32,456 bases of DNA from a virus (taxonomy: Duplodnaviria; Caudoviricetes): positions 1 to 32,456 of the IMG/VR virus record IMGVR_UViG_3300047546_000217. One strand, written 5' to 3'. How positions within the stretch are numbered: the stretch's first letter is position 1; each line of letters opens with the position of its first letter. Positions 6,881 through 27,490 of this stretch are shown here, one piece after another. A program made the translations under genes and the position numbers. The notes beneath the pieces were generated by a model, which saw only the letters and a list, made by a program, of their open reading frames with translations, did no database searches and was not told the origin of the DNA.

Positions 6881-7375
6881 ATGGCATTCAGTTTCAAAGA
6901 CCTCAACCTGTCTGGCGTAGAAGCAGCAAGCGCTGGCTCAGTTCTCAAGCCCGGTCGTCATGTTGTGACCGTGGCAGAAGCACAGATCAAGACGAGCCGT
7001 TCCAACGGCGCGATCTTGGAGTTGAAGTTGACCAATCAAGAGGGCGCAATTCGCCACTGGATCAATGTGCATGTACCAAACTCCGAGCAAGCAACACGCA
7101 TTGGTCGCGAGCAACTCAAGGCATTGCTTGTGCACGGCGGTCACCCGAACCCCGATAACCCGGGCGGCGTGGAAAAGATTCGTGGTCTGACAGTTGGTGT
7201 GAGCGTTGGCTCAGACACATACACCGACAAGGATGGCAACGAGCGCACCGGAAGCAAGGTCAAGGGCTTCTTTGACCCATCGGAGGTCACCGGCAAGTCG
7301 AGCAAGCAAGCACCATCGTCTTCGCAAGGCGGCGGCGATGGGTTTGACGACATGAAGGACGACATCCCATTTTGA
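6881..7375 (+). CDS. Single-stranded DNA-binding protein (DUF669-like)
   Basis: VLKPGRH beta-rich body, a flexible tail and the C-terminus DDMKDDIPF. AAGGAGG RBS. Confidence 0.85.
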   Translation: MAFSFKDLNLSGVEAASAGSVLKPGRHVVTVAEAQIKTSRSNGAILELKLTNQEGAIRHWINVHVPNSEQATRIGREQLKALLVHGGHPNPDNPGGVEKIRGLTVGVSVGSDTYTDKDGNERTGSKVKGFFDPSEVTGKSSKQAPSSSQGGGDGFDDMKDDIPF

Positions 7376-7384
7376 TGACAGCAC

Positions 7385-7414
7385 AAAAGGGGGGTGCTTC
7401 ACCCCCCTTTTTTT
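7385..7414 (+). terminator. Intrinsic terminator or attenuator after the SSB gene
   Basis: AAAA-GGGGGGTG-CTT-CACCCCCC-TTTTTTT. Confidence 0.8.
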
Positions 7415-10704: not shown

Positions 10705-13700
10705 TTACTTGAATGGATCACCGCCGAATGGGTCTTTGCCTCCACCGAACGGATCGTTGGACATACCGTCAAAGTACGCTTTCTTCTTGCCGCCCTTACT
10801 TGGTTGACCCATCAGGTCTGCGGCTGACTCTCTGAAGTCTCGGCTTCCACCAAGGACAGGGATGCGCGACGCAACCACTCGTGCTGCTTCACGTTTCTGA
10901 CCATTGGTGTCTGCGCCAGCAATCATGTCTTGCACGCCGCCAGCTACCTTGAAGCCACCGTAGGCAACATCGTAAGACGGGCCGAGGATTGTGCCCATCA
11001 TGCGGTTGAAGCCGTAGTTGCCGTTGTCGATCTGAGCGGCTGAGTTGAAGAACAGTTCGCCAACAAAGCCAAGACCGCCCATCGCCATCAAGCCCTCAAC
11101 ATACCAAGCGACCGCTTCGTACTTGTCCTTGATGTCTTCCTTGTCGACCAAGCCAAAACCGACAGCAGCCTTACCGATAACCGTCTTGTCGAGCGAGCGT
11201 GCACGCAGTTCTGGGCTGCGCTCGTCTTGACCGCCACGAGACTGGACAATGTCTTTGACAGCTAGGGCGGAAGCGCCGAGAGCAGAGCCTGCCGTCAGCA
11301 TGTAGATCAGCGGCTTGGCATTGCCTTGCTTGGCTTCGTCCATGACGTAGCTGGTGAGACGACCCATCATTACTGGGTACGACTTCAACTGGTAGACCAT
11401 TGCGCCCCAAGGAGTTTGTGCCCACAACGGAACATCGTTGGGGTCAGGGGTGAAGATCGCTTCGTTCGTGAACTTCATGACGGCGTAGCGCACCTGCGGG
11501 TTTTGCGCATAGGTGCGGATGTCGTCAACGCGAGGAGCACTCGGGCTTGCAAAGTTGATGTGACCGTCTGGCAGGTCTCGACCAGCCATGCCGTAGCGCT
11601 CCAAGAAGCGAACGGCTGTCTTGTAGCGTGCGCTGTCTACCGCGCCATTGTTGGCGTACTTGCGAGCAATCTCGATCTCAGACTTGAGGGCGTTGAAGCC
11701 AACAAGCGCTGCCACCTCACGCTGCATGTTCGTCCAAGGAGTCAACAGTGTCAGGTTGAAGAAAGAGTTGCTGAAACGCTGAGAGCCATCGCCAGCCATA
11801 TTGACCATGCGGTCGTGGATCAGGTTCTCGATGCCCACGCCAATGTCGCGAGCGGCGTTTCGGTAGGAAGGCTCTGCCCTGTACCACTGGCTCATACCCT
11901 TTGCCCACGCTTGGAAGTTGCCAGAGCGAACAAGCGGCAAGACTGCATCAGGGATAGACGACAGAGTCGTAAAGCCCAGCAGAGAGACGGAGTTGAATGC
12001 ACGCAGTTTGCGGCTTGCTTGGTAGATCAAGCCAGTGCCGTCAGTGCCGTCGATTGGGCGCTGGTTCAGCACGTTGACCATGTTGTCCATGAAGCGCAGA
12101 TCAGAAGCCGGGACAGGCTTCTTGAAGTCAGACAAGGCGTTGACCACCGCGTCGATTCTGAGACGAAGGTTTGACGCCATCGCCTCATCCATGTTACCGA
12201 AATCGTAGTTGCTCAGAAGCTCCATCTTGGCGCGGTGCTTCATCTGCGCAGACGATGCGTTGGTGTCGCCCAGCATGTTGGTGACCTTCTTCACCAAGTC
12301 TCTGGTCTCCTCTTCGCCCAGCTTGATTGCGGGGACGATTAGGTTCTCAACGTCAGCAGAGTGGAAATATTCGCGGCGGTTGACGAAGATGTTCTTGTTG
12401 GAGCGCAACACGTTGACGGCTGCATCAACACCCATCTCTGCAACAGCACGGTATGCGTTGTACGCATGACCGCCAGCGCCGAACTCTTTTGCGAGTGTCA
12501 GCTTGCGAGTTGTCTTGTTGTAGTAGCGGGCCAAGATTCCCTCAAGGTCATTGACCATGAAGGGAGTGAAGGCGGGCATGTCGCTTGCCTTCAAGTTGAT
12601 GAACCGCTGGTAGAACGGATTCGAGAACTCGCGGTGAATGACGGAGTCAGCCGCCAAGTGACCGTCGTTGTCCAGAATCTTGTTGAATATTTTGGTAGCC
12701 AACTCGTCTGCATCACGAGGGTCAAATGTGTCTCCATTCATGCGGTGATCCCGCATGATGTAAGAGCGCAACTCTTTCAGGAACGAGTTGGGGTTCTCGC
12801 GAATTGCCTCCGCATCCCACATCTGCGGCACATAGGTGTCGGTGTAGCCGCGCATCGTTGCATCGCCGACAGGGATGCCAGCAGAACGCAGGCGCTCAAG
12901 CTCCGAGCGGAACGTAGTTTGAATGCGCTCTGCGATCATGCGCTCTTGCGGGCTGAGACGAGCCATTGCCTGACGTCCTTGGCGCATTGCATCCAAGATT
13001 CTGGTGTGCGACGCAGGCTGACGAATCTTGACGTGAGAGCCAGCGGCTCCGCCAGCAATCATTCCACCAAGACCACCAAGCACAGTTCCCACTCCGGGAA
13101 GTATGGCGCTGCCAGCGGCTGCACCGCTCAGAGTACCGCCAACCAGAGGCATGGAGATCAGGCTCTTCTTGAACCAGCGACCAACAGCATTGCCTGAATC
13201 TGGCAGAGCGCGAAGCTCAGACAGTAGAGGCTGCAAACGAGCAGACAGGTCTGAGTTGTGACGGTCGTAGATGCTGCTGCCGGTCTGCCCTTTGATTCGG
13301 TTTGCAAACCAGTGAGCGCCGAGACGACGGAGCACGGAAGAGTTCTCGCGGAGCACGTTGCCAACAGTGTTGGCGTGCACCACTTTCACGTCTTCAAGAT
13401 CAAGCTCTTGCTTGCGAGTCATCTTCTTGACAACGCCTTGCAGCGCATCTGGGATGCCGAGTCGCTGAATCTCGTGACCAATGCCAACGTAGTCTTGGCT
13501 GGTGATGACGCGGTTGAACGACTCCATCTCGTCTGCAAGACGATGGGTGACGCCCATGAGTTCATCGCCAACTGTGCTGTTGTAGATTCCAGCACGCTCG
13601 TAATCGTATGTGTCTGCGTCGATGTGCTTGACTTGGTTGCTGTCAAACAAGACCATCGCATCATGCTGACCAAGGCCATCAGGAGAAGGCTCGCTCACAT

Positions 13701-16700
13701 GGTATGAGTCATAGCCAAGCTCGCGCATTGCAGATTGAAGTTTCGCTTTGGCCTCGGCAGAGTTGACCGCCAATCCATCACGAACCATTGCGCTCTCTGT
13801 CAGCATCTCGAACAGGTCGGAGCCGCTGAACTGAGACGGAGCCTTGTTCACAATATCCTTGAACGCAGAGTCGGTCATGTAGTTGTGGTTGACCAAGTAG
13901 TCGCCGAGCCACATGATGTTGTTGCCCTCTCCATTGAAGGAGTAGAACACGCCATCCCTGAAGTCGAATGATTCAGCCGCATGAACAAACAGCGGCATGA
14001 CCTTCGGGTTGTATTTCAGGCCGGTTGCGTTTTGCAATGTAGACCACAGCGCGTGCTCTTCGGCGATTGCGTTTTGCAGAGCCTTCTGTTTGTTCAGAAG
14101 CCCAAGCGCAGAGTCATCTGGATGCAAGTCTGCGATTGACTCGTTGTCCATGGATGTCTGAGCGCGACGCTTTGTTTGCTCAGAGTACCCAGACAAAGTC
14201 ATCTCTCGACTCATCTCGTCGATCTGATTGCGTTTCTCAACAATCATCTGCGCAAGCTCGTAGCCTTCGCGTCGTTTTGCGTCTAGCGGAGTTGCGTCGT
14301 CGATCATTCTGCGTATTGACGCAAGATGACCTGCCTCCGAGTAATGTTTGCCCAGAGCCTGCGATTTGCTGACGTAGACCCCGGGGCCGAACAATGCGTC
14401 TGGAGCAGACGGTTCGAGGATCGGATCGAGTAAGCTGCCACGCTCCATGGCTGAACCGTTGGGCGTGCCATGGTAGTAGATGAAGTCCATCAGGTCTTCA
14501 TTTGGCGAAGCCATGGTGAACTCGCGAGCCATCGCTTTCTTGGTGGCATCCATGGATGTCACGACATCGCGGGCGTAGTGTGGCGCAATCGACGCCATCA
14601 CAGAGTAGTTGTTGGTGTTGTCGACGGCAGCCTTGAACGGAACCTTCGTCTTGTTCATGGAGAACATGTCTCCGTAGAAGGTCAGACGACGGAACTGTTG
14701 ACGAACAGTGTTTTTCTTGAGTAGGCCGTTGACGATGTAAGCAACATACTCAATCAAGCGATCAGCCAGTGCGCTCAGTTGACCGCGCAAACGCAGAGGC
14801 TGCTCTCCGTTGCGAACTGCAAACATGTCGCCCTTTGCGACTCGCTCGCCGAGGTACTTCGCCCAACCTTCAACAAACCACTCTTGAGCAGAACGATGAA
14901 TGTCGCCAGCGCCGTACTTTGCTGCGATTTGCATTGCTTCGCGATTGCCCTTGATGAGGGCTTCGCTGTATTGCTTGGCAATCGTTTCCAACTGATCTTG
15001 ATCGAACGTGGCGCGAACTACCATGTGACCGATCTCGTGCATCAGGTCAAATGGATCGCCAGTACCGGAGCGCAGGCCAATGGCATAGCGGCGCATGTCT
15101 TTGCGCAGCAAGTTGAAGCCTTCTCCATCGAGTTGAGACATTTCCTTGAATGCTCCCCTCACGTCTTCAGGAGCAGTCAGGCCAGCCATGCGGTACACGT
15201 CCTCCACAGTCATGAAGGTTGCGTTGTTGTTGACCAAGCCTTTCTCGGTGCGACCCATCAAGTTCAACATGCGGTAAGCCATGGTGCGCATGGTGTACTC
15301 GGCTGCTTTGTCGCGATGAGTCAGCTTCATCAACGCTTCGCGAATGGCGACAGGCGCTGCTGGCGGGATGCCGTTGTCTTTGTAGACACCGATGTGCTGC
15401 TTCGTCTCAGTGTGCAGCGCACCGCCAACCCGGCTGTCTTGTGGCAGCAGGAACGGATCAGACTTGTCGCCAAGTCGCATCTGGCGTGCGCGTAGTTCAA
15501 CCGCAATCATGTCGACGCGAGCAGGGTCTGCTTTCTCAAATGCGGCAATCAGACCGTTGACCAACGACTTGTTGGAGCGATCAGCCAGTTGTGAGAACTG
15601 CGCTGGGTCGTAAGCCTGCGCTGCTTTCGTGATCTCTGGCGAAGAGTTGATCTTGCGCATGAGTTCAGCAGAGAAGCCTTTGAAGCGAGAGTCTTGCGTG
15701 CCCATCTCAGCCATGGCTTTGACAAGCTGATTGACCGACATCTCGCGGATAGAGCTTGTGGACGCAGAGTCAAACGTCGCGTTGTTTGTGACCGCTGCGT
15801 TCTCCATGATGGTGTCGGCAGCATTGATGAGCGCATTGACGTTGGCCTCTGCATTTGCGCTCGTGATTGCCTTACGACGTTGAGCACGCTTGCGGTAGAT
15901 GTTTCCAACTGCGCTGTCTCGTGTGCTGGTGATGACGCCATTGGCAAGAATAGCCAGCCCGTCGCCAACATCCGTCTTGGGGAATGAGCGGCGGAACTGC
16001 TGACGCAGCGCTGTCTGGGCTTCATTCAAAACTTCGACTGCCGCATTGCCAAGCAACTGAAGATCAACTGGGTCGCCAGTGAAGTTGCTCAGAGCCATCT
16101 CTTCCATTGAGCGGTTCTGACCAAATACTTCTGGGCCAAATGTGTCGTCTGCCTCTTGCGAAGCGATCAGTCGATCAAGCTCGGCCTTGGCAGCATCGTC
16201 ATCGAGACTGAGTTGGCGCTTGCGCATGTCCGCTGTTGCACGCTGAATGTCGTACATGAGACGAAGCATCTTGCCGCGAACAAAGTATCCATTGGGGTCG
16301 GCAGCCACATCAACCATGTCACCATTGGCGAGCGCCTTTTGACCGATGGTCTCTCCGCCGTCGAACAGACGAACACGACCGCCGCCGCCAGTGCCGTCGG
16401 CCTTCTTTGGCAGGCGCATTGATCCGCGCTTGCCTGAGACAGCGAAGACCTCTGAGACGAAGTTGGCGCTACCGGAGCCGTCTCCAGCCAACACTGCAAG
16501 CAACTCTTCTGGCGTGCCAGAACGAATGGCATTCTCGATCTTTGCCTTGAGCAATTCGTAGTCGTCGAGCTTTTTGGCAATGAAGCCGGGACGACCACCA
16601 AGAGGTGCGAACTTCTTTGCCACCTTCTGGTACTTGAGGCCGCTCGTCTCCTCGTCGGGCATGATGCGCTCGAAAAGCGGGATCAAGTCCCTGTCGATCA

Positions 16701-19700
16701 GGTCGTACTCAGAACCCAAGAAGAACTTCTTGAGCACCTCGGTGACCTTCTTGGAGACACGCGCCCAAAGAGCGGCAAGACCTTCCTTCTCACCAGCGCG
16801 ACCACTTGAGATGACCCACTGAGCAAACTGATTTGCAAAAAACTCAGCAGCAGACTCAAGCTCATTGGTGGCGGAGCCGGGGAGACGGCGACGCAGAGAT
16901 GCGATGTCCACTCCGTCTTGCTTGACGTACTTGCCCATCGCCTGCCAGAACTGCATGCGCTCTTCTGGAGACAAAATGTTGAAGTAGGCCCAGTGCCCGA
17001 TCTCGTGAGTGGCCTTTGCAAAAGACGGTTGCAGTCTATTGCTGTTGCCATCCATGGTGATGACGTTTCGATCCTTGGTGTCGAGCGACGTGTGCCAAGG
17101 AGCAAACGTAGGTTCGCCATTGTTTCCGCCGTTGGCGAAGCGAGGCATAGAGCCACTGTCGCCAGACAGGCCGCGCAACACGTTGAATATGGCGGTGGCG
17201 TTCTCTCTGTTCTCGCTGCCAAGGATGGCGGAGATTTGATTCATGGCGGAACGGCGAGTGCCGTTCGGATACTTGATTCCGTGAGGAGCGTACTTAGCCA
17301 AGGTGGCGTAGTAGCCAGACAGAATCTCCATGAACTTGCCATAGCTGGCAGTGTCTTTGAATGCTGGGTTCTTCCAGTTTGCAATTTCAAGCTGGACGAT
17401 CAGGTTGTGCAGGTCAGCAACCGTCTTGATTCCGCTCTTGCGTGCGTATTCAGGCAGGTCATTTTCATCAATCGCACGCTCGGCGATCTCGCCGATAGGG
17501 ATTGGCTGCTTGCTTCCGTCGGTGACGTCTGCGTCTTTTGCGTAAGCATGAGAAGACTTGTCGACAACGACTGCGTCTGCCTTGATGAAGGATGCGTCTG
17601 GGTCAATGGGTTGGAAGGTGCGTGCGGCAGACAGCTTCGACGTACCCGGAACAACATGACCAATGACGTAGGTCTGCTCTGCTTGGCGACCAAGGACTGA
17701 GCGCAGGCTGACGTCTTTGGCACGCTCCGCAGGCACGACGCGCACTGTTCCAGCCAACGGGCCAGAGGTGATCTGCACTGCAAACGAGCGGCCTTCGGGG
17801 ATGTCGTGAGACGAAACTCGCGCATCCAAAATGGCATCTGCTTTGCCAGCAGCAATGTCGTCTGCGGTTGGTGCGTCGAGACCTTCTTCCTTTGCGCCCT
17901 TGTATGTCTCAGTGTTCTTCCAGTTCTTCTGAACATGCGGCACGCCAGTCGGCGCAGTGGTTGTGACCAGTTTGCCTTGGCGCGAAGCCAGCTTCACCTG
18001 CTCCTCGAACAAGTCGGGGAGGCCACGCAAAGCATGCTCCAGCGAGCCGTATGAAACCTGAACTTCTGCGTAGTCGCCAGTCATTGGCTCGATCACAAAC
18101 TCGCCAGACTTTGCGCCCTTGCGAAGACGAGCTACCGGGTCTCCCAAGAAGTTGACTTGGAACGAGCCGTCTTGGTTGGCTGACATGCGGAAGTTGTTTT
18201 TGACGTCAACCTCAATACCGTCACGGGTGACGACAACCATTGGCTCATTCTTGCCAACAGGTTTGGTGTCTGGGGCAACCTCGGAAAGAGAGTGCTTCTT
18301 GCGAATGTCAGTGATCTCATTTGCAAGACGAGCCTTGTCTCCATGGCTCATGAAGCGGGCCATGGCGTCAGCAATCTCGTTTTGCATGGATGCTGCATTA
18401 GCGATCTTGCGACCGGCAGTGTCAGCGATGACCGTTGCTACCTCGATGTCTTTGGGTTCAATGACAACGCCGGTTGCATTGGAAACCTCGTGAGCAAGCT
18501 GGGCGTCGGTCTTCGGATTCTCGGAGCGAGCGTTTGCCACCTTGCTCTCAGCAAGCGCCTTGCGTGCTGCTCGCTTGGCTGCCTTGTCTTCAAAGAATGT
18601 TGGGTCTGCCTGACGAACGGCATCCTTGACCTTCTTCACCTCGGCGTTGATTTGCGCGTATGCGGGAGAGTCACGACCAGCGGACTTCTCAATCTCTGTG
18701 CGCTTGCGAACAAGCTCAGAGTAGCGTGCATACAGACGCTCTGCCTTGCGACGAGGGTCGGTGCGGTCAGCCTCAACTTCGCGACCACGAATGGCCTTGT
18801 CTGTTTCTTGCGTCATCATCTTGCGCTCTGCGTTCAGAGCCTCGATGACTTGCGCGGTGGTCTTGACCTCTGCCTTACCTGCTGAGTCGCCAGCTTCTGG
18901 GACGAAGTCTTCTGCTTTCTTCCCTGCCTTTGTCCACTCAAGCAGCTTGGCATCGTTGCGAGCCTTGCGGTCGTTGTACGCACGCAGGGTTTCGCCAGTG
19001 GGAGCTTCGCCAGTCACCGAACCAGTGATGGTCTTTTCGCCAACCATCCTCTTGTACAGAGCAACCGCTTGGTCGTCCGGCATGGTGTAGACGAGCTTGC
19101 CGTTCTGGTTGACTGAGACGTTCTGGAAGAATTCGTCGTCTGCCGCAGACGCAGCGTTCGGGTTGTTCTGCCACTCGGCGTAACGCTCCGACTCCTTTTT
19201 GGTGAGGCGGCGTGTCAGTTCCTTTTTGGCTGTGTCAATGGCATCGACTTGCTCTTGGTTCTGAGTTGTCAGAGCTTCGCTCTTGCGCATGCGCTCAGTG
19301 CCGCCAGCAATCTTGGCTTCCTCCATTGCGCGACGAGATGTTTCGTCGACGGAGAACACGAGGTTGTTGCCAGCCTCGTCTTTGCCACGGGCTGCCTTAA
19401 ACAGGCGATCCATGAACGGGCTGTCTTTCGGGCCAAAGCGGGCTGGCTTGAGAATGCTCTGGATGCCGCCTACTGCGTTGGCCTTGATGATCTCGCCGTT
19501 CTTGCTGTATGTGAGACCCGGTTGCTGGCGACCAATGTAGTCACCGGAATGCAGCGGGTTCATGTTCTGGTCATCGACCAAGCGCTTCTTGCCGTTGCCA
19601 AGATCGACGATCTTCACGTTGTCGCGCAAGCGAGCAACGTACATGTTGAGCGCCATTTGGACAAACTCGGGCGACATGCCGCGAGCCTCTGCCTCGGCGA

Positions 19701-22317
19701 TCATCTTTTTCTTGACGGCTTGGAATGCAGCCTGCGCCTCGGGGCCAAGGTCTACAACCTTTGGCAGGCGAATCTTGTCAAACTTGGTTCCAATGCGGAG
19801 ACGAACATCTGCATCACCGGAGACGCGGTTGATGATCTCAACCATCTCGGTTCCAAACTCTCGCGAGATTTGATCCATGACGGCGTCAAGCGGAGCGTTC
19901 TCGCCAAGACGAGTCATCATGGCTGCGACGATGCCGGGAGCCTGACCCTCAAGCCAAGCCGTGTAAACGGCGTTGACGGTGGCAATGCGGTCTGCCGGAA
20001 TGTCGATCAAGTCGAACAGGGCACGCATAGCCAGTGGTTGGTAGGCTGCTGGAGCGGAGTCGCCACCAACAATGTCGATGGCACGCATCAGGTCTTGCGC
20101 GGCAATCGCCTCACGCATCTTGCGTGCAAGGAAGTTGGCTCGCTCAGTCTTCAGAGCTTCGCCCTTGAGGTTGCGAGTCAGGTTGCGCAGGTCTGCGATC
20201 TCTGCATCACCGAAGCCCATCTCGCGCAGCGCAGCAATCGTGTCTGCTTGGCTCTGCGAGTTGTTGATGGCGAGCGTCTCGATGCTTTCGGTGGCTGCTG
20301 GAGTTGCGTCAACGGCATCAGGAGCGTCAGCCATGATGGCCTCGGCTTCGCTCTGAACAGTGTCCGTGCGAGCGGCAGCGGTCGCCGCGTCTTCGGCTGG
20401 TGTGGCAGTGTGAGTGACGGTTGTTGCAACCTCGCCACCATCAGTCACCGATGCTGCTGCGGAAGTCTGGGTTTGCGCCTCTGCTTCGCGAACGACCTTG
20501 CGTTGGGCCTTCTTCTGCTCGTTGATCTGGTCACGCTTTGCACGCAAGTCAGCAAGTTCGGCTGCATCAGACTCACTGATGTTGCCGGATTTCTCTTTGC
20601 GGGTCAGGTTGTCGAGACGATTTTTGAAGGAGCGGGACTCTTCGTCCAAGCGGGTAAGTTCTGCGCGTGCTGCATCCAACGTCTGAGGCGTGACCGCAGT
20701 GTTGGTGGCGGTTGGAGCGGCAGCAGGATCGACCGCTGCTGGCGCAGCGGGCGCTGTCGTCTCAGCGGAAGCTGGTGCTGGAGCGGCCCCGTCAACCGCT
20801 CCAGCCGTGCCTGCCTCTTGGCCCGGTGCGGGAGGAGCACCTTCGCCTTGAGCGGCACGTTGCATCGTGAAGTTGCCTTCCCCGCCGGGGCCACGAACAG
20901 GGGCGTTCGGGTCGAGGGGAAGCTGCGGAGCTTTCCCATCTGGGCCGGGGAGTTGGTCGACTTGTCTCAGAATGGCGTCGCCATCGTTCAGGGCTTTGGC
21001 AGCGCCGTCGTAGTCGCCAGCCAAAACGTGGTTCTTGAGTCTGCTGTATGTGGCTTCAAGGGCGGCAGCGTGCGCCCGAATCTTTCCAGCCTTGATGGGG
21101 TCTGTTGCAAGAATCGCGTCAGCCTCGGCCTTCATCGTCGAGATGCGAACCGGCATCTGACGGAATGCCTGCATGGCTCCGCGAACCTTGATGAGGTTGT
21201 CTGCCTCAACGATGCCGGTTCCCTGACCGGATGCTGACAGTGCGTTGATGCCAGCGATCTGCTCGTCTGTCGCCCCGTCTGGAAGACCACGGTCTACCGC
21301 GTCGTTGATCTCGCGCTCAAGGTTTCGGTCAAAGTCATTGAACGCCGTGTTGAGGGCGCTGTCCTCGAAGGTGGCTGGATTGGATGGGTCGGGTTTACCC
21401 TTGGGTGCGTTGATGGCAGCTTGCTCGTCGGCGATTCGCTGCGCCTCTGCTTCAGCCAGCGAGCGGTCGAATGTGGCGTTTCCGTCTGCAATACCGCGCT
21501 CAATGGCGTTTGTTGCGCCCTCTTTGAATGGGTTGCGAAGCAAAGCGCCGCCAACACCAAAACCAGCGCCCAGCGTGCCTCCAAGGACACCACCAGCACC
21601 AGCAGAAAGCGCGGTGCGACCGAGGCTAACCTCGTCTTGGATGCCGACTTGCACATTGCGGTTCTGGATGCCGAGGTCGAAGCCGCCCTCGATGACGGCA
21701 TTGGTCAAGCCTTCTGAGACAAGACCCTGCTTGGCGGCTGCCTCTACGCCTGCTCGTGTTGCAGACTTCCCAGCGTAGGCCACGCCCTGTTCGGCGGCCT
21801 CTCGGGCCGCAATCTGCACACCCTTTGCGGCAGCATGGGCGGCTGCGGAGCCGGAGCCAAAGCCAACCAAGTTGACAGGATCAAGAACGGCGGCTTTTGC
21901 GTTTTCGGCAAAGCCGGAGAAGCCGCGACCGCCTTCTTCGTAGAAGTTGGGGAGGGCATCAAAAACCGTCTGAAGGCGACCAAGGCGCTGGGCCTGCTCC
22001 GTGTTGGACGTGTAAGCGTCATACAGGTCTTTGCCCATGGAGATCGAGTTCTGATTGCTCCAGACGCGATCCTTGTAAAAGTGGTCGATTGCGTCCTCGA
22101 CGGTCGCAAAGGTCTGACCTTGAGCGCCGTAATAATCGACGACGTCTTGAATAAATCGGGGGTCTTTGAGAAGGTCTTGCGCCTTCTGTTTGTCTAGGTT
22201 GGCTGCGTAGCCAAGGGGGGTCGACTTGTTGCCACCGGCGGTGGGGCTGACAATGCCGTCAGCACTCATTTGCGACCATACGGACGCACCAATGTCGTTT
22301 ACTTTCTCATTTGCCAT
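10705..22317 (-). CDS. Giant (3870 aa) polyvalent virion/ejection protein with two zincin metallopeptidase modules and an ADP-ribosyltransferase domain
   Basis: GGAG RBS. HEIGH...EFFA (16993-17007) and HEIGH...EWFV (15025-15039). YYHGT...FGPGVYVS...LGYDS...VLFDSNQVK (about 14478-13620). Gly/Ala-rich N-terminus and a helical C-terminal region like podovirus large ejection proteins. Last structural gene before lysis. Confidence 0.85.
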   Translation of the reverse strand: MANEKVNDIGASVWSQMSADGIVSPTAGGNKSTPLGYAANLDKQKAQDLLKDPRFIQDVVDYYGAQGQTFATVEDAIDHFYKDRVWSNQNSISMGKDLYDAYTSNTEQAQRLGRLQTVFDALPNFYEEGGRGFSGFAENAKAAVLDPVNLVGFGSGSAAAHAAAKGVQIAAREAAEQGVAYAGKSATRAGVEAAAKQGLVSEGLTNAVIEGGFDLGIQNRNVQVGIQDEVSLGRTALSAGAGGVLGGTLGAGFGVGGALLRNPFKEGATNAIERGIADGNATFDRSLAEAEAQRIADEQAAINAPKGKPDPSNPATFEDSALNTAFNDFDRNLEREINDAVDRGLPDGATDEQIAGINALSASGQGTGIVEADNLIKVRGAMQAFRQMPVRISTMKAEADAILATDPIKAGKIRAHAAALEATYSRLKNHVLAGDYDGAAKALNDGDAILRQVDQLPGPDGKAPQLPLDPNAPVRGPGGEGNFTMQRAAQGEGAPPAPGQEAGTAGAVDGAAPAPASAETTAPAAPAAVDPAAAPTATNTAVTPQTLDAARAELTRLDEESRSFKNRLDNLTRKEKSGNISESDAAELADLRAKRDQINEQKKAQRKVVREAEAQTQTSAAASVTDGGEVATTVTHTATPAEDAATAAARTDTVQSEAEAIMADAPDAVDATPAATESIETLAINNSQSQADTIAALREMGFGDAEIADLRNLTRNLKGEALKTERANFLARKMREAIAAQDLMRAIDIVGGDSAPAAYQPLAMRALFDLIDIPADRIATVNAVYTAWLEGQAPGIVAAMMTRLGENAPLDAVMDQISREFGTEMVEIINRVSGDADVRLRIGTKFDKIRLPKVVDLGPEAQAAFQAVKKKMIAEAEARGMSPEFVQMALNMYVARLRDNVKIVDLGNGKKRLVDDQNMNPLHSGDYIGRQQPGLTYSKNGEIIKANAVGGIQSILKPARFGPKDSPFMDRLFKAARGKDEAGNNLVFSVDETSRRAMEEAKIAGGTERMRKSEALTTQNQEQVDAIDTAKKELTRRLTKKESERYAEWQNNPNAASAADDEFFQNVSVNQNGKLVYTMPDDQAVALYKRMVGEKTITGSVTGEAPTGETLRAYNDRKARNDAKLLEWTKAGKKAEDFVPEAGDSAGKAEVKTTAQVIEALNAERKMMTQETDKAIRGREVEADRTDPRRKAERLYARYSELVRKRTEIEKSAGRDSPAYAQINAEVKKVKDAVRQADPTFFEDKAAKRAARKALAESKVANARSENPKTDAQLAHEVSNATGVVIEPKDIEVATVIADTAGRKIANAASMQNEIADAMARFMSHGDKARLANEITDIRKKHSLSEVAPDTKPVGKNEPMVVVTRDGIEVDVKNNFRMSANQDGSFQVNFLGDPVARLRKGAKSGEFVIEPMTGDYAEVQVSYGSLEHALRGLPDLFEEQVKLASRQGKLVTTTAPTGVPHVQKNWKNTETYKGAKEEGLDAPTADDIAAGKADAILDARVSSHDIPEGRSFAVQITSGPLAGTVRVVPAERAKDVSLRSVLGRQAEQTYVIGHVVPGTSKLSAARTFQPIDPDASFIKADAVVVDKSSHAYAKDADVTDGSKQPIPIGEIAERAIDENDLPEYARKSGIKTVADLHNLIVQLEIANWKNPAFKDTASYGKFMEILSGYYATLAKYAPHGIKYPNGTRRSAMNQISAILGSENRENATAIFNVLRGLSGDSGSMPRFANGGNNGEPTFAPWHTSLDTKDRNVITMDGNSNRLQPSFAKATHEIGHWAYFNILSPEERMQFWQAMGKYVKQDGVDIASLRRRLPGSATNELESAAEFFANQFAQWVISSGRAGEKEGLAALWARVSKKVTEVLKKFFLGSEYDLIDRDLIPLFERIMPDEETSGLKYQKVAKKFAPLGGRPGFIAKKLDDYELLKAKIENAIRSGTPEELLAVLAGDGSGSANFVSEVFAVSGKRGSMRLPKKADGTGGGGRVRLFDGGETIGQKALANGDMVDVAADPNGYFVRGKMLRLMYDIQRATADMRKRQLSLDDDAAKAELDRLIASQEADDTFGPEVFGQNRSMEEMALSNFTGDPVDLQLLGNAAVEVLNEAQTALRQQFRRSFPKTDVGDGLAILANGVITSTRDSAVGNIYRKRAQRRKAITSANAEANVNALINAADTIMENAAVTNNATFDSASTSSIREMSVNQLVKAMAEMGTQDSRFKGFSAELMRKINSSPEITKAAQAYDPAQFSQLADRSNKSLVNGLIAAFEKADPARVDMIAVELRARQMRLGDKSDPFLLPQDSRVGGALHTETKQHIGVYKDNGIPPAAPVAIREALMKLTHRDKAAEYTMRTMAYRMLNLMGRTEKGLVNNNATFMTVEDVYRMAGLTAPEDVRGAFKEMSQLDGEGFNLLRKDMRRYAIGLRSGTGDPFDLMHEIGHMVVRATFDQDQLETIAKQYSEALIKGNREAMQIAAKYGAGDIHRSAQEWFVEGWAKYLGERVAKGDMFAVRNGEQPLRLRGQLSALADRLIEYVAYIVNGLLKKNTVRQQFRRLTFYGDMFSMNKTKVPFKAAVDNTNNYSVMASIAPHYARDVVTSMDATKKAMAREFTMASPNEDLMDFIYYHGTPNGSAMERGSLLDPILEPSAPDALFGPGVYVSKSQALGKHYSEAGHLASIRRMIDDATPLDAKRREGYELAQMIVEKRNQIDEMSREMTLSGYSEQTKRRAQTSMDNESIADLHPDDSALGLLNKQKALQNAIAEEHALWSTLQNATGLKYNPKVMPLFVHAAESFDFRDGVFYSFNGEGNNIMWLGDYLVNHNYMTDSAFKDIVNKAPSQFSGSDLFEMLTESAMVRDGLAVNSAEAKAKLQSAMRELGYDSYHVSEPSPDGLGQHDAMVLFDSNQVKHIDADTYDYERAGIYNSTVGDELMGVTHRLADEMESFNRVITSQDYVGIGHEIQRLGIPDALQGVVKKMTRKQELDLEDVKVVHANTVGNVLRENSSVLRRLGAHWFANRIKGQTGSSIYDRHNSDLSARLQPLLSELRALPDSGNAVGRWFKKSLISMPLVGGTLSGAAAGSAILPGVGTVLGGLGGMIAGGAAGSHVKIRQPASHTRILDAMRQGRQAMARLSPQERMIAERIQTTFRSELERLRSAGIPVGDATMRGYTDTYVPQMWDAEAIRENPNSFLKELRSYIMRDHRMNGDTFDPRDADELATKIFNKILDNDGHLAADSVIHREFSNPFYQRFINLKASDMPAFTPFMVNDLEGILARYYNKTTRKLTLAKEFGAGGHAYNAYRAVAEMGVDAAVNVLRSNKNIFVNRREYFHSADVENLIVPAIKLGEEETRDLVKKVTNMLGDTNASSAQMKHRAKMELLSNYDFGNMDEAMASNLRLRIDAVVNALSDFKKPVPASDLRFMDNMVNVLNQRPIDGTDGTGLIYQASRKLRAFNSVSLLGFTTLSSIPDAVLPLVRSGNFQAWAKGMSQWYRAEPSYRNAARDIGVGIENLIHDRMVNMAGDGSQRFSNSFFNLTLLTPWTNMQREVAALVGFNALKSEIEIARKYANNGAVDSARYKTAVRFLERYGMAGRDLPDGHINFASPSAPRVDDIRTYAQNPQVRYAVMKFTNEAIFTPDPNDVPLWAQTPWGAMVYQLKSYPVMMGRLTSYVMDEAKQGNAKPLIYMLTAGSALGASALAVKDIVQSRGGQDERSPELRARSLDKTVIGKAAVGFGLVDKEDIKDKYEAVAWYVEGLMAMGGLGFVGELFFNSAAQIDNGNYGFNRMMGTILGPSYDVAYGGFKVAGGVQDMIAGADTNGQKREAARVVASRIPVLGGSRDFRESAADLMGQPSKGGKKKAYFDGMSNDPFGGGKDPFGGDPFK

Positions 22318-22348: not shown

Positions 22349-22379
22349 ATCTTATGGGCGACTGATCTAAATGTCGTCC
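22349..22379 (-). promoter_or_regulatory. Candidate late promoter GGACGAC-N18-TAAGAT
   Basis: Lies in the 65-nt gap directly upstream of the giant gene. Confidence 0.6.
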
Positions 22380-22382
22380 CAG

Positions 22383-23612
22383 CTACTTCTGCGCATACTT
22401 GGACAGTGGCGAGTTGGGGAACATTTCTCTAAATCGTTTTGCGGCTGCCGCGCTCGTGAACTCAAAGTGTAGGTGCGGGGCAGTTGCGTTGCTGCTTGGA
22501 TTGTTTGCCTCGTCTTGAACATAGTAGTCGCTGGCAGGGATTTGGAGCTTGTTCATGTATTGGATCAAGGCGACCTTCGCCGCTGCATAGTCCTTGCGTC
22601 CGCCATCTATGGCGAGGTCAAGTGCTAGTCCGTAGCGGTGCTGACTGTCCTGACCCTTTTGCTTGTAGAGATTGTGGTGGAACTTGTCGTCAAAGGACGA
22701 GTAATACTGGAATCCCGGGATAACCCGAGTCAACTGTTGAGCCAAGACGTCAACCCCCGGAGAGTGAGGGCGGTAAATCACGTCGCCACTCTGGCGGATA
22801 AACGGGTCTAGGTCAAAGCTGCCAGTAATTGGGTTGCGCTGTTGTGTTGGTTTCGCAGCCTCTTCCCTGAACACCTGATCCCACGTCTTCTTGTTCGTCT
22901 TGCTGATGGGTGCGTTGATGTCAAAGTTGAGACCCCAAGGGTTTTGCATGCCAGAGCCTGCTTGACCCACATTCTCGCGAACCACCTTCCAGTATTGATC
23001 CTGAGACAAGCCGTAGCGCTTCCATGGCTCATTGCCATTCATCGAGACAATAGAGTTGTTCTGCACCGAGACAGAGCCGGTCTGCGTGCGACGCGCCTCG
23101 CGTGCTTGCCTGTCGGCCTCATACCTTCTCCACTGTTCGGCGTACTCCGGCGTGTTCTGCGCTGGAGGCCGTTGCGATTGCAACGCTTGTTGTTGCTGAA
23201 AGTACAGAGGAGCCGTGACGTTGAACGGCACGTTGTTGTTGATTGAAGAAGGCCCAAACGCGGGTGATCGACCCACGTTCTCTCTGGCTCTTGCCTGTCT
23301 TGCTTGCTCAACGGCTGCGTTCCATCTTTCGCCCGCAGTCATTGATCCACCTTGCTGCTGATTTCTGGCATCAAAGTCACGGCGCAGTTCTGCGTATGAC
23401 GGGTAAACGATTGTCTCGTTTGGCCCGAGTGACAGACGTGGGTCGAGCGGAGCAGGCTCGATACGACCAGAAGCCTCGCGTGAGGAGGCGCGGTTTATGG
23501 TTGATGCTGCCGGAGGAGGTGGCGAGCTATTGTTTACTGCTGCTGCTGGGGGTGCGTTGTTATTTGCGCTAACCGCCCCCGGGAGGGAGACTCCCGGGGG
23601 CAACTCCTCCAC
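22383..23612 (-). CDS. Pro/Ala/Asn linker plus C-terminal M15-like peptidoglycan peptidase; probably a recoded C-terminal extension of the upstream gene
   Basis: SQHRYGLALD (22617-22646) and PHLHFEF (about 22458-22478). The GTG start has no well-spaced SD, and the frame opens only about 60 nt before the upstream stop. Confidence 0.75.
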   Translation of the reverse strand: MEELPPGVSLPGAVSANNNAPPAAAVNNSSPPPPAASTINRASSREASGRIEPAPLDPRLSLGPNETIVYPSYAELRRDFDARNQQQGGSMTAGERWNAAVEQARQARARENVGRSPAFGPSSINNNVPFNVTAPLYFQQQQALQSQRPPAQNTPEYAEQWRRYEADRQAREARRTQTGSVSVQNNSIVSMNGNEPWKRYGLSQDQYWKVVRENVGQAGSGMQNPWGLNFDINAPISKTNKKTWDQVFREEAAKPTQQRNPITGSFDLDPFIRQSGDVIYRPHSPGVDVLAQQLTRVIPGFQYYSSFDDKFHHNLYKQKGQDSQHRYGLALDLAIDGGRKDYAAAKVALIQYMNKLQIPASDYYVQDEANNPSSNATAPHLHFEFTSAAAAKRFREMFPNSPLSKYAQK

Positions 23613-25836
23613 CTGTCCTGACAGCTTCTTCTATCAGGCGCAGGCGATCAGTGATTGGGCGAAGGTCTCCAGTCTCACGAGCTTTGGCTGCAAGCGCTTC
23701 AAGGTTTCTTGCCTCGTCTGGGTGTGCAGCCAGATACTCGGTCATGTGTTGGTTGTTGTACCCGGCAGATGAGCCAACCGCACCAGTGCCACCCATCCTC
23801 TCGACCCACGCATCAAACTCTTGAAAGTTTCTGAAGCCCAATTTTTGAACGTCTGCCTCTTTGCGCATGAGCCTGTCGTATGGGCCAAAGAACCCAGAGT
23901 ACACACCCATGGCTGAGTTAAGAGACTGACTAGCTTTTCCAGTGCGGTCGGCTCTATCAAGGTAGTTTCCAACCGCCGTCTTATTTGGATCGGAGGCTGG
24001 AACTGGTTCGCTGAGTGCGTTATTCCTTGCGGCCTGCTCATTTGTTGGCAAGCTCGACCTTGGTGCTGCCTTGCTGTGGTCGATGCGGCTGATCTGCGAG
24101 TCGATGTTGTTCACCATCTTGTCGTACTCAGCAAGCTGCTGGTTCAGGTAATCCTGAACACTGCCAGAGCCAGCTCTTGTGCTGCCGTCTGCGTTCTTAA
24201 TGGTGAACTGAATTTGCGTCCCATACTCTTGGAAGTTGGCGACCTCACCAGAAGTCCACTTGACACGCATGTTGCTGACAATGGTTCTGATGTTTTGCTT
24301 GTTGGCCTCGATCTCTGCCGCAAAGTCTTTTGTGTATGCGGAACCGTTCCAGTTTGCTGGGCCATCATTGGTAACCTTAGTCATGAGGTTGCCAATGAGT
24401 TTGTTCAAGAGATCGGCGGACTCGGTGACATGACGGCTGATCGACTCGCCCGGACGAACCGCCACACCTTTGGCAGCCATGTGCTCAGACGAAAACTTGA
24501 TTGCAAGCTCGGGCTTAGTGCGCCATTGGTACTTTCTCTGAAGTCCAGCCAAGACGGTCTCAGCGTTGTCTGCACCCTTCTCAAGGGCAGCAGCAGTTTT
24601 GACGACGTCGTCTAGCGGAGCGTCAGTGGATAGGCCACGCTCGACCAAGTTGATTAAGGCCAAGTACGCTGGGCCTTCTTTTTTCAGCGAGCCTGTTGCA
24701 ACGGCGCTGTTGACGCTCGTCTTGATGTTGACCTTGAAGTTGTCGAAATACGAGTCAGCTTGCGACTGACCGTATGCAGTTGCAGCAGCCTGACTTTGTT
24801 GGAAGTCAAAGCGAGCACGCATACGAGTGAACGTCTGCTCAAAGTCTGTTCCAAGAACTTTTCTTGCTTCGTCGATGCTGGCAAAGCGCTGCATGCCAAC
24901 ACGCGCTGACGCATTGTTGATGATGTCAAGCATCATGTCTGGAGTCATCGCTTGACCTCGATAGGTCTCAAGCAAAGATTTCAGTTCACCGTCTGGCGCT
25001 GTCAAAAGATTGTTGAGTTCTTTGACCTTGCGAGAATTTTCCGCAGAGGTCGTTACGTCTCTACGATTCTTCAAAGAGTCGATGAGTTGAGTGATCTCTT
25101 TGTCTGTTGGATTGACAAGGCCGTGTGCAGAAGCAATACCCATGACGCGCTTTTTGAGAGCGGTGTCATCCATGTAGATCATGGTGGGATCATTCAGCGT
25201 CTCAATCGCTTGGAAAGCGTTTTGCATGCTTGCCTTACGCTGAGTTTCAAGGCGATCAGTCATTGACTGACGCAGCATTTGCCTGACGATTGCTGGCTCT
25301 TTCTCGAACAGTGCGTCAATGTCCTTTGGGTCATTGGCGTTCGTGAAGCGAGGTGTTGTGATGAGTTCAGCAACTCGCGTGTTGAGCTTCTTCGTCTGAA
25401 TTGTTTCTAGGCTTCCGCTGTGCTTTGACCACCATGTTGCGCCAGCATCAGGGCCAAAAGCCTTGATAATTTTTTGTTGGGCGATTTCTGGTGTGTCAGC
25501 AATGTCGATGAATGCAGAGCCAGTGTCGAGTTGCTTTTGGTTGTTCTCGAAGTCTCTTGTTGTGCGGTCGAGGATGTTTGAGACGACACGCTGGTTCTGG
25601 TTGCCAGCAATCGTCTTCATCATGGACTGAGCAGGAAGCGCATCAGAGAAGTAGGGATCGCCGCCAGTAATTGACTGGCGGAAATTGTCCAACGCCTCTG
25701 CGGTGAGAGGCGTGTCATTCTTTGTGGCTTCGTCGATAAACATCTGCCACGCCTTGGCGTTCTCAGAGCGTTGCTCGCGAAGGAACTTCTTTCCTTCCTC
25801 CCAACCCTCTATGTAGCCAGCATAGTTGCGTGCCAT
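23569..25836 (-). CDS. Putative internal virion/ejection protein (755 aa)
   Basis: Long, helical-looking, Cys-free protein in the position of the middle ejection gene. GGGGGA RBS. Confidence 0.7.
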   Translation of the reverse strand: MARNYAGYIEGWEEGKKFLREQRSENAKAWQMFIDEATKNDTPLTAEALDNFRQSITGGDPYFSDALPAQSMMKTIAGNQNQRVVSNILDRTTRDFENNQKQLDTGSAFIDIADTPEIAQQKIIKAFGPDAGATWWSKHSGSLETIQTKKLNTRVAELITTPRFTNANDPKDIDALFEKEPAIVRQMLRQSMTDRLETQRKASMQNAFQAIETLNDPTMIYMDDTALKKRVMGIASAHGLVNPTDKEITQLIDSLKNRRDVTTSAENSRKVKELNNLLTAPDGELKSLLETYRGQAMTPDMMLDIINNASARVGMQRFASIDEARKVLGTDFEQTFTRMRARFDFQQSQAAATAYGQSQADSYFDNFKVNIKTSVNSAVATGSLKKEGPAYLALINLVERGLSTDAPLDDVVKTAAALEKGADNAETVLAGLQRKYQWRTKPELAIKFSSEHMAAKGVAVRPGESISRHVTESADLLNKLIGNLMTKVTNDGPANWNGSAYTKDFAAEIEANKQNIRTIVSNMRVKWTSGEVANFQEYGTQIQFTIKNADGSTRAGSGSVQDYLNQQLAEYDKMVNNIDSQISRIDHSKAAPRSSLPTNEQAARNNALSEPVPASDPNKTAVGNYLDRADRTGKASQSLNSAMGVYSGFFGPYDRLMRKEADVQKLGFRNFQEFDAWVERMGGTGAVGSSAGYNNQHMTEYLAAHPDEARNLEALAAKARETGDLRPITDRLRLIEEAVRTGGGVAPGSLPPGGG
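23575..23601. repeat. Perfect 11-bp GC-rich inverted repeat in the gene overlap
   Basis: Minus strand GCCCCCGGGAG-TCTCC-CTCCCGGGGGC, flanked by GTT (23604-23602) and G-GTT (23573-23571). Confidence 0.92.
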
Positions 25837-27459: not shown

Positions 27460-27490
27460 ACGATACTACTAAGACGATTGTTGGTCGTCC
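27460..27490 (-). promoter_or_regulatory. Candidate late promoter GGACGAC-N18-TATCGT
   Basis: Lies in the 58-nt gap upstream of the 27431 start. Confidence 0.58.

Follow-up and report, generated by a model that had tools for sequence, protein, structure and literature searches.

In gene 60 of phage T4, ribosome take-off is driven by a refolding 5' stem-loop together with a stop codon after the take-off Gly codon (bioRxiv 10.1101/2022.08.31.505936). In a 70S translation system, a 12-base-pair (bp) GC hairpin beside the E site stimulated a +1 shift at a stop codon to about 60% of the level obtained with an internal Shine-Dalgarno (SD) sequence (PMC6321510), and a related stimulation of +1 shifting by an upstream duplex has been described (PMC3639245). 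Frameshifting also extends several phage virion proteins (PMC5009743, PMC5658483). Here we describe a junction between two reading frames in a virus of the Caudoviricetes, IMG/VR record IMGVR_UViG_3300047546_000217. The whole stretch of 32,456 nucleotides (nt) that was analysed is referred to as the window, and the record has an estimated completeness of 56%. On the minus strand of the window, the gene of a putatively gp15-like internal virion (ejection) protein of 755 amino acids (aa) runs through a hairpin into a stop codon, and an open reading frame (ORF) for an M15-fold peptidase continues in the +1 frame.

The initial annotation of this junction proposed a programmed bypass, in which ribosomes would hop between two GTT codons that flank the hairpin and so make a fusion protein alongside the 755-aa form. 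We find that the junction is real and conserved and is not an assembly error. Because the site is conserved, its hairpin covaries, the linker behind it is coding and no DNA-level fusion or deletion was found, a two-product recoding scheme is likely. This part of the proposal is retained, including its peptidase, while the specific GTT-to-GTT hop is less well supported. The exact match between the codons is lost in one haplotype.

A conserved frame break with a covarying hairpin

The 755-aa ORF (23569..25836, minus strand, as are all junction features below) ends in frame 0 with Gly-Gly-Gly-stop. The +1-frame ORF (22383..23630) encodes 409 aa counted from GTG 23612, with 395 codons past the proposed landing GTT, and its frame is closed upstream by TGA TAG at 23636-23631. 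The main hairpin, HP2 (23575..23601), has arms at 23601-23591 and 23585-23575 that form 11 Watson-Crick pairs around a 5-nt loop (about -25 kcal/mol). It is preceded by the proposed take-off codon, the GTT of Val745 (codon 745 of the 755-aa ORF, 23604-23602), which joins HP2 by G-U pairs only. It is followed by the last sense codon, the stop and the next base, GGT-TAG-C (23568..23574). These letters contain the +1-frame triplets GTT (23573-23571) and AGC (23570-23568), the landing GTT overlapping the TAG stop (23571-23569). An SD-like GGAGGA (23605..23610), which also codes for Gly-Gly, lies between HP2 and an upstream hairpin of two stacked helices, HP1 (23609..23647, -13 to -23 kcal/mol). 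A weak third hairpin, HP3 (23559..23573, -1 to -3.5 kcal/mol), would take up GGU-UAG with the stop in its 5' arm; it is predicted with low confidence, 19 of 20 cells being paired and none covarying. A second frame-0 stop, TAA, follows at 23562-23560. On re-check, every junction coordinate given in the initial annotation was correct.

The 121-nt junction region folds with a z-score of -4.16, and none of 200 shuffles was equally stable. Any perfect 11-bp stem was present in 5% of 200 whole-window shuffles, and a Watson-Crick stem of at least 8 bp ending within 9 nt of a stop was found at one of 319 ORF ends of related loci, namely at the same junction in L027. Motif scans returned the two-ORF layout in three of seven and three of 34 matches, all of them in this clade. 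Other gene overlaps of 40-70 nt had also been claimed for this phage, but at the ten other junctions of the late module the genes are 9-65 nt apart or overlap by 1 or 14 nt.

Seven related contigs (L001-L003 and L010-L013) span the junction and, together with the window, represent four distinct haplotypes. The frame break is identical in all seven contigs. In every haplotype the stop stands at the same place, the +1 frame opens 59 nt upstream of it, GGAGGA and GGT-TAG-C are unchanged, and HP1 is predicted. Contigs from four of four sequencing runs (one DNA, three RNA-library), one of them at a depth of 425, contain neither an indel nor a joint, although the window may derive from the DNA run and rare variants are lost in contigs. 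None of the six protein clusters found (search range 415-1322 aa) is a fused form. The peptidase profile matched loci of this clade only and revealed no in-frame fusion in relatives, and phmmer relatives of the peptidase domain showed no likeness to the 755-aa protein. All 25 listed protein C termini end in GGG (one-letter code).

These contig, run and cluster data rule out an assembly indel or a DNA deletion, both raised in the initial annotation, as the main form. Palindromes between short repeats are prone to deletion, and loss of the 31 nt between the two GTTs would restore the frame. However, with the break kept throughout and the catalytic residues intact, it is very improbable that the locus reflects an assembly error, a decayed gene or a palindrome deletion that gives an in-frame subpopulation. 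A -1 frameshift was also rejected, as the +2 frame closes 11 codons past the stop in eight of eight records.

The initial annotation looked to homologues for a conserved overlap and a covarying hairpin, and both were found. L012 (82% protein identity) keeps all 11 pairs of HP2, three of them through double changes (G-C to U-A, A-U to C-G and G-C to A-U). The 5' arm has moved by 1 nt, and the 3' arm with its foot and GGT-TAG-C have not moved. This pattern of compensatory change indicates that HP2 is under selection. The exact GTT/GTT match is not conserved: three of the four haplotypes have GTT at the take-off position, and the haplotype of L002, L012 and L013 has GCA there, followed one codon later by GTC, which sits within the stem arm and is readable by the same tRNA-Val as GTT. 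Variants available as protein only imply a change in the loop (P0210). The more distant P0006 (42% identity) has a C-terminal peptide that is compatible with a stem, deduced here from the protein only, and ends GGG-stop; its last 26 residues include no Val. No DNA locus for P0006 was found in viral contigs or in genome contigs. Upstream of the stop, synonymous change between the window and L012 is lowest of the whole gene at codons -35 to -10 (2/21 versus 46%, p 3e-4). The 15 pairs of HP1 include one compensatory, two one-sided and four with breaks, and its covariation is not above that of shuffles (135/500).

The stretch from the stop to ATG 23342 encodes a Pro/Ala/Asn/Ser linker (23343..23570). 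Its +1 frame is open in all four haplotypes, and the other two frames contain stops. The distances from stop to ATG (229, 190, 217 and 196 nt) differ only by multiples of three. Codon changes between the window and L012 comprise 10 synonymous and 9 non-synonymous (p 0.014, 26 alignable codons), and those between the window and L003 comprise 5 and 7, respectively (p 0.18), with gapped and poorly aligned columns excluded. An open frame of this length occurs in 10-32% of shuffles and is weak evidence alone. Together with the in-frame indels and the synonymous bias, it shows that the stretch right after the hairpin is coding, as the initial annotation had supposed. Since the linker is coding from the stop onward, the switch into the +1 frame must take place no later than the first codons past the stop.

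The downstream module was correctly recognized as a peptidase in the initial annotation. The domain at residues 270-409 (22386..22805) has the M15 (LAS) fold and carries the zinc ligands in His-x6-Asp and His-x-His motifs (His325, Asp332 and His380/His382 in 409-aa numbering), of which the H, the D and the first H of the second motif are invariant across 50 aligned relatives. An alignment-based structure model reached a predicted local distance difference test (pLDDT) score of 94; a single-sequence model (pLDDT 54) showed no clear fold. The best Foldseek rows were ChiX (E 4.3e-3), LdcB, VanXY and LysECD7, none reaching E 0.001, and the top 13 listed rows are M15-type peptidases or a related zinc-binding domain. 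A Pfam match to M15_4 was weak and below the cut-off. The modelled fold suggests putative peptidoglycan cleavage. The start of the domain lies past residue 300 in 120 of 149 relatives, within tape measure and other long proteins, which indicates that this M15-fold domain is normally tethered inside long virion proteins. In the protein collection, the peptidase ORF has been called with lengths of 275-407 aa.

Two further observations concern the origin of this module. The last ~105 residues of the peptidase (22386-22700) are identical between the window and L012, unlike those of the closer L003 and L011, pointing to recombination of the catalytic end. The nearest relatives of the domain, P0010-P0019, are found in proteins of 300-870 aa, which are a possible donor. 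Presumably these proteins resemble baseplate-hub proteins of T4-like phages; they have no library name.

Routes into the downstream frame

We consider it probable that a fusion of the gp15-like ejection protein with the M15-fold peptidase is made, by whichever route. The coding linker, the lack of a start shared by all overlaps, the low synonymous change upstream, the GGACGAC motif after the peptidase ORF and a relative bearing an in-frame SLT domain (both described below) all fit such a fusion. So does the usual position of the domain deep inside long proteins, several of which are tape measure proteins. For the crossing itself, we tentatively prefer a forward shift at the stop codon, driven by the refolding hairpin, over the GTT hop. 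The ribosome would unwind HP2 and reach GGU in the P site with UAG-C, presumably a weak terminator, in the A site. HP2, the 3' foot of which is the E-site codon, would then refold behind the ribosome and push it forward. The peptidyl-tRNA-Gly would re-pair imperfectly in the +1 frame, either with GUU (+1) or with AGC (+4, a two-of-three match), and translation would continue into the linker. One mRNA would yield the complete 755-aa ejection protein and a minority fusion of ~1150 aa with the linker and the peptidoglycan peptidase, and in the virion this peptidase might cut the wall at injection.

A shift at the stop fits the conserved letters at least as well as a hop between Val codons. The 3' foot of HP2 directly abuts GGT-TAG-C in both stem variants even though the 5' arm moved, and every listed homologue, P0006 included, ends GGG-stop with a stem-compatible peptide. 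Several points weigh against the shift. Its re-pairing would involve a middle mismatch (GGU to GUU) or a first-position mismatch (GGU to AGC), in contrast to the good re-pairing at known shifty stops (CUU to UUU, CCC before a stop; PMC5009743), and the hairpin effect in PMC6321510 was obtained on CUU-UGA and only when release factor was absent. In L012 a Val codon has re-formed at the stem foot, something a stop shift does not need, and ATG 23342 could supply the peptidase without recoding. The covariation of HP2 comes from one comparison of two stem variants with DNA, and in P0191 the inferred change would break the closing stem pair. Furthermore, the synonymous suppression is not significant between L011 and L012 (5/18, p 0.07), and recombination is evident within the clade, as seen in the identical peptidase end of the window and L012.

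In the hop of the initial annotation, peptidyl-tRNA-Val would leave GUU (GUC in L012), slide over HP2 (28 or 25 nt) and land on the GUU before AGC, giving a fusion of 1140 aa, with HP1 acting as the 5' stem-loop. The Val pair is readable by one tRNA in all four DNA haplotypes, and L012 gained GTC where GTT was lost, just as gene 60 homologues move the take-off by one codon and use wobble pairs (bioRxiv 10.1101/2022.08.31.505936). The distance from the end of HP1 to the take-off codon is 4-8 nt, the A site can accommodate a docked stem-loop (PMC7282821), and the length of the gap is near the byps mean of 37-39 nt (PMC13461519). We nevertheless regard this bypass as unlikely. The A site would hold GCC (33 per 1000 late-gene codons) or CCC (9.8), neither of which is a stop or hungry. 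The gap is GC-rich and contains an earlier GTC, HP1 lacks significant covariation, and P0006, with no Val near its end, would need another matched pair. Matched take-off and landing pairs are plentiful by chance in the region, so the 3-nt match is weak alone, as the initial annotation had itself allowed. That a true Val-to-Val hop crosses a GC hairpin at an ordinary A-site codon, with tandem hairpins alone, seems rather doubtful to us. If it did, it would represent a class of bypass that works without a stop, hungry or unassigned codon and that equips some ejection-protein copies with an enzyme rather than repairing an insert. Two other hops were rejected: a long one from GGU to the GGT of a Ser-Gly pair 64-103 nt further on (preceded at 6 nt by GAG in three of four haplotypes), where the interval is coding and has earlier GGY triplets and L012 has GGG, and a take-off at a GTC that the rare AGG follows (codon -17), where L011 has ATT.

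Slippage closer to the hairpin could give the same frame change. Within the stem arms, the ribosome could slip by +1 from GGG to GGG (at CCC GGG G) or from CCC to CCN, or could make a Gly hop from GGA to the 3'-arm GGG. All three are available at the same register in all four haplotypes and fit the P0006 peptide, and late genes use GGG rarely (3.9 per 1000). These events are improbable, as nothing that would stimulate slips in the arms is in position, be it a stop, a hungry codon, an SD at 3 nt or a downstream structure, and the stem is unfolded while arm codons are decoded, so such slips would leave its conservation unexplained. Slippage of RNA polymerase, stimulated by the nascent hairpin and dropping one G or C from the mRNA, finds a parallel in the Roseiflexus IS630, which loses one C at T5C5 beside a nascent stem-loop with the same net frame change (PMC5009743). 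Here, however, the G/C runs lie inside the stem rather than immediately 3' of it, they have no A/T run before them, and contigs of the three RNA-library runs have no indel, although these may hold DNA and would hide minority forms. We consider this route highly improbable. The last alternative dispenses with a fusion: the peptidase ORF would start alone, either by coupled re-initiation in the hairpin-hidden overlap or at ATG 23342, with the hairpin controlling coupling or mRNA stability. The initial annotation underrated this ATG. It stated that the downstream frame lacks a well-spaced SD, but the SD duplex of ATG 23342 (23340..23353) has -9.6 kcal/mol, as strong as at neighbouring genes, and is good in both the window and L011. 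An ATG or GTG stands at this position in all four haplotypes, with a strong SD in two; L003 has GTG and L012 has ATG, neither with an SD. Moreover, each haplotype has a canonical start in the overlap (GTG -41, TTG -32 or ATG -53), TTG 23603 sits at the stem foot behind an SD-like run, and an open frame as long as the linker is not rare by itself. GC hairpins of a similar kind often occur between genes in unrelated phages (of 34 pattern matches, 31 lack the two-ORF layout). Yet no overlap start is common to all four haplotypes, and L012, which has no start at that place and no SD before its ATG, nevertheless keeps the stem by compensatory pairs. Initiation at ATG 23342 alone would not account for the in-frame indels and the synonymous bias of the linker, and no U-tract terminator was called at the hairpin on either strand. 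GUU is a very poor start codon, and a GUU start with a hairpin-bridged SD would need it. Bridging of an SD by a hairpin is described for T4 genes 25 and 38 (PMC3014915). Overall, peptidase expression without any fusion is unlikely though credible. ATG 23342 may, in addition to a fusion, give a free 319-aa form.

Gene order and phage family

The name gp15-like is given to the 755-aa protein by synteny. Library searches gave it no family name, and no match to it was found among annotated phages. Its gene lies between the GNAT and 270-aa genes and a giant gene that matches the annotated internal virion protein D of pelagiphages and of Roseobacter phage CRP-810. By both synteny and homology, the late-gene order of the window is the same as in CRP-810 (PMC11288001). 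CRP-810 gp37 matches the profile of the 755-aa family (E 6e-10), and gp36 matches the giant gene. An iterated profile collected a family of 39 distinct syntenic ORFs of 617-1009 aa. Outside the freshwater clade, the family member is always a single ORF, directly before the giant gene in 37 of 38 cases; the sole exception, in L094, bears an in-frame SLT domain. Neither the hairpin nor the peptidase ORF is present in CRP-810 and the other 38 distinct family ORFs, and the add-on is restricted to the freshwater clade, which was carried by freshwater and river samples.

A GGACGAC motif lies near the gp15-like stop in 28 of the 39 distinct family ORFs, and in the window it lies 3' of the peptidase ORF (22373..22379, minus strand). 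The peptidase module is a clade-specific add-on inside a unit that elsewhere is one gene. The motif after the peptidase ORF and the single-gene unit elsewhere fit an extension of the gp15-like gene, but they also fit an inserted gene.

Several further features were noted. In L094 (2082-4409 and 4665-6827), the gp15-like gene includes the SLT domain in its own frame, and an additional GDSL hydrolase gene precedes the giant gene. GGACGAC occurs nine times in the window, against 5.2 expected (7 of 100 shuffles reach nine), with copies at 22373-22379, 27484-27490, 1458-1464 and 335-341 on the minus strand and at 7357-7363 on the plus strand. Several copies lie where genes end, with a short inverted repeat behind them. 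The motif before the giant gene is conserved across the CRP-810-like family at the frequency given above and is possibly a promoter, operator or RNA-processing signal. The deposited CRP-810 genome (OR671924) has frame breaks near the gp37 start and between gp36, gp35 and gp34 (L021: 6570-6610, 9960-10100 and 15980-16100), where relatives have single ORFs. These breaks are probably sequencing errors, because of which gp37 is annotated ~110 codons short. The internal virion protein D-like giant gene of the window (10705-22317) encodes 3870 aa, has no Pfam match and has 16 relatives of 2799-3980 aa. Two stem-loops with flanking A and T runs (1903-1923 and 7385-7411) are likely bidirectional terminators. 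No tRNA genes were found in the window. The clade proteins P0004 and P0211 occur in a metagenome bin labelled Ilumatobacteraceae, which reflects either a host link or binning contamination.

Relation to known recoding systems

The junction lacks at least one defining feature of each of gene 60 cassettes, byps, prfB and PSA-type sites, and we found no paper on it in a literature search that left out most subscription papers and all supplements. It resembles T4 gene 60 in its two out-of-frame ORFs, its junction stem-loops, its Gly codon followed by UAG with a strong stem-loop on the 5' side, and its matched Val codons readable by one tRNA that flank the stem (GTT/GTT in three haplotypes, GTC/GTT in L012). 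HP2 would serve as the 5' stem-loop for a Gly take-off. Unlike in gene 60, a Val take-off here has no stop or hungry codon, and a Gly take-off has no matched landing nearby. Gene 60 has a mini-SD 5-7 nt before the landing codon and an AU-rich, landing-free gap, whereas here the gap is a GC stem and the G run ends 2 nt before GUU. The short product here is a full native protein, to which recoding would add a domain instead of repairing an insert, and no homing-endonuclease context was seen at the junction. Like the byps of Magnusiomyces mitochondria, it has matched codons separated by a short GC hairpin insert, and the inserts are similar in size. It differs from them in the bacterial ribosome, in the lack of an unassigned A-site codon (GCC and CCC are normally used) and in being a single site compared to dozens.

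Closer in layout are prfB-type sites and the synthetic upstream-hairpin stimulators (PMC6321510, PMC3639245), which likewise have a stop in the A site and a duplex directly 5' of the P-site codon, with hairpins of similar size and GC content. The stop context, GGT-TAG-C, is the same in all four haplotypes. In prfB an SD lies 3 nt 5', while here codons -4 and -3 are CCC GGG, not AGG GGG, and the hairpin foot takes that place. GGU also has no exact, wobble or family match forward within eight codons. Compared to the synthetic stimulators, the duplex here is intramolecular and natural. No natural phage example of an upstream-hairpin stop shift was found in the literature searched, where a poorly pairing stop shift driven by a refolding hairpin has so far been shown on synthetic mRNAs only. 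Either leading route, such a stop shift or a bypass that has no slow codon in the A site, would be a recoding signal for which this literature gave no natural precedent, in a cassette of ~110 nt with natural compensatory variants.

In its outcome, the locus would join the frameshift extensions of phage virion proteins (T7/T3 gene 10B, Listeria PSA, A118 and A500, Lactobacillus A2 and the predicted endolysin-internal virion protein of Alteromonas H4/4), in which a minority of copies likewise gains a C-terminal domain from another frame. Those systems use -1 slips, or +1 slips at CCC before a stop or pseudoknot, and mostly add immunoglobulin-like domains to capsid or tail. Here the protein extended would be an ejection protein, the added domain a peptidase, and the hairpin lies 5' of Gly-stop. 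In contrast to Listeria PSA and A118, CCC lies four codons before the stop and the last codon is GGT, and in contrast to the Roseiflexus IS630, where the stem-loop is directly 5' of the T5C5-like motif, the runs lie within the stem. This comparison suggests a way in which podophages may set the number of wall-cutting enzymes among their few ejection-protein copies, and that gene callers may hide such fusions.

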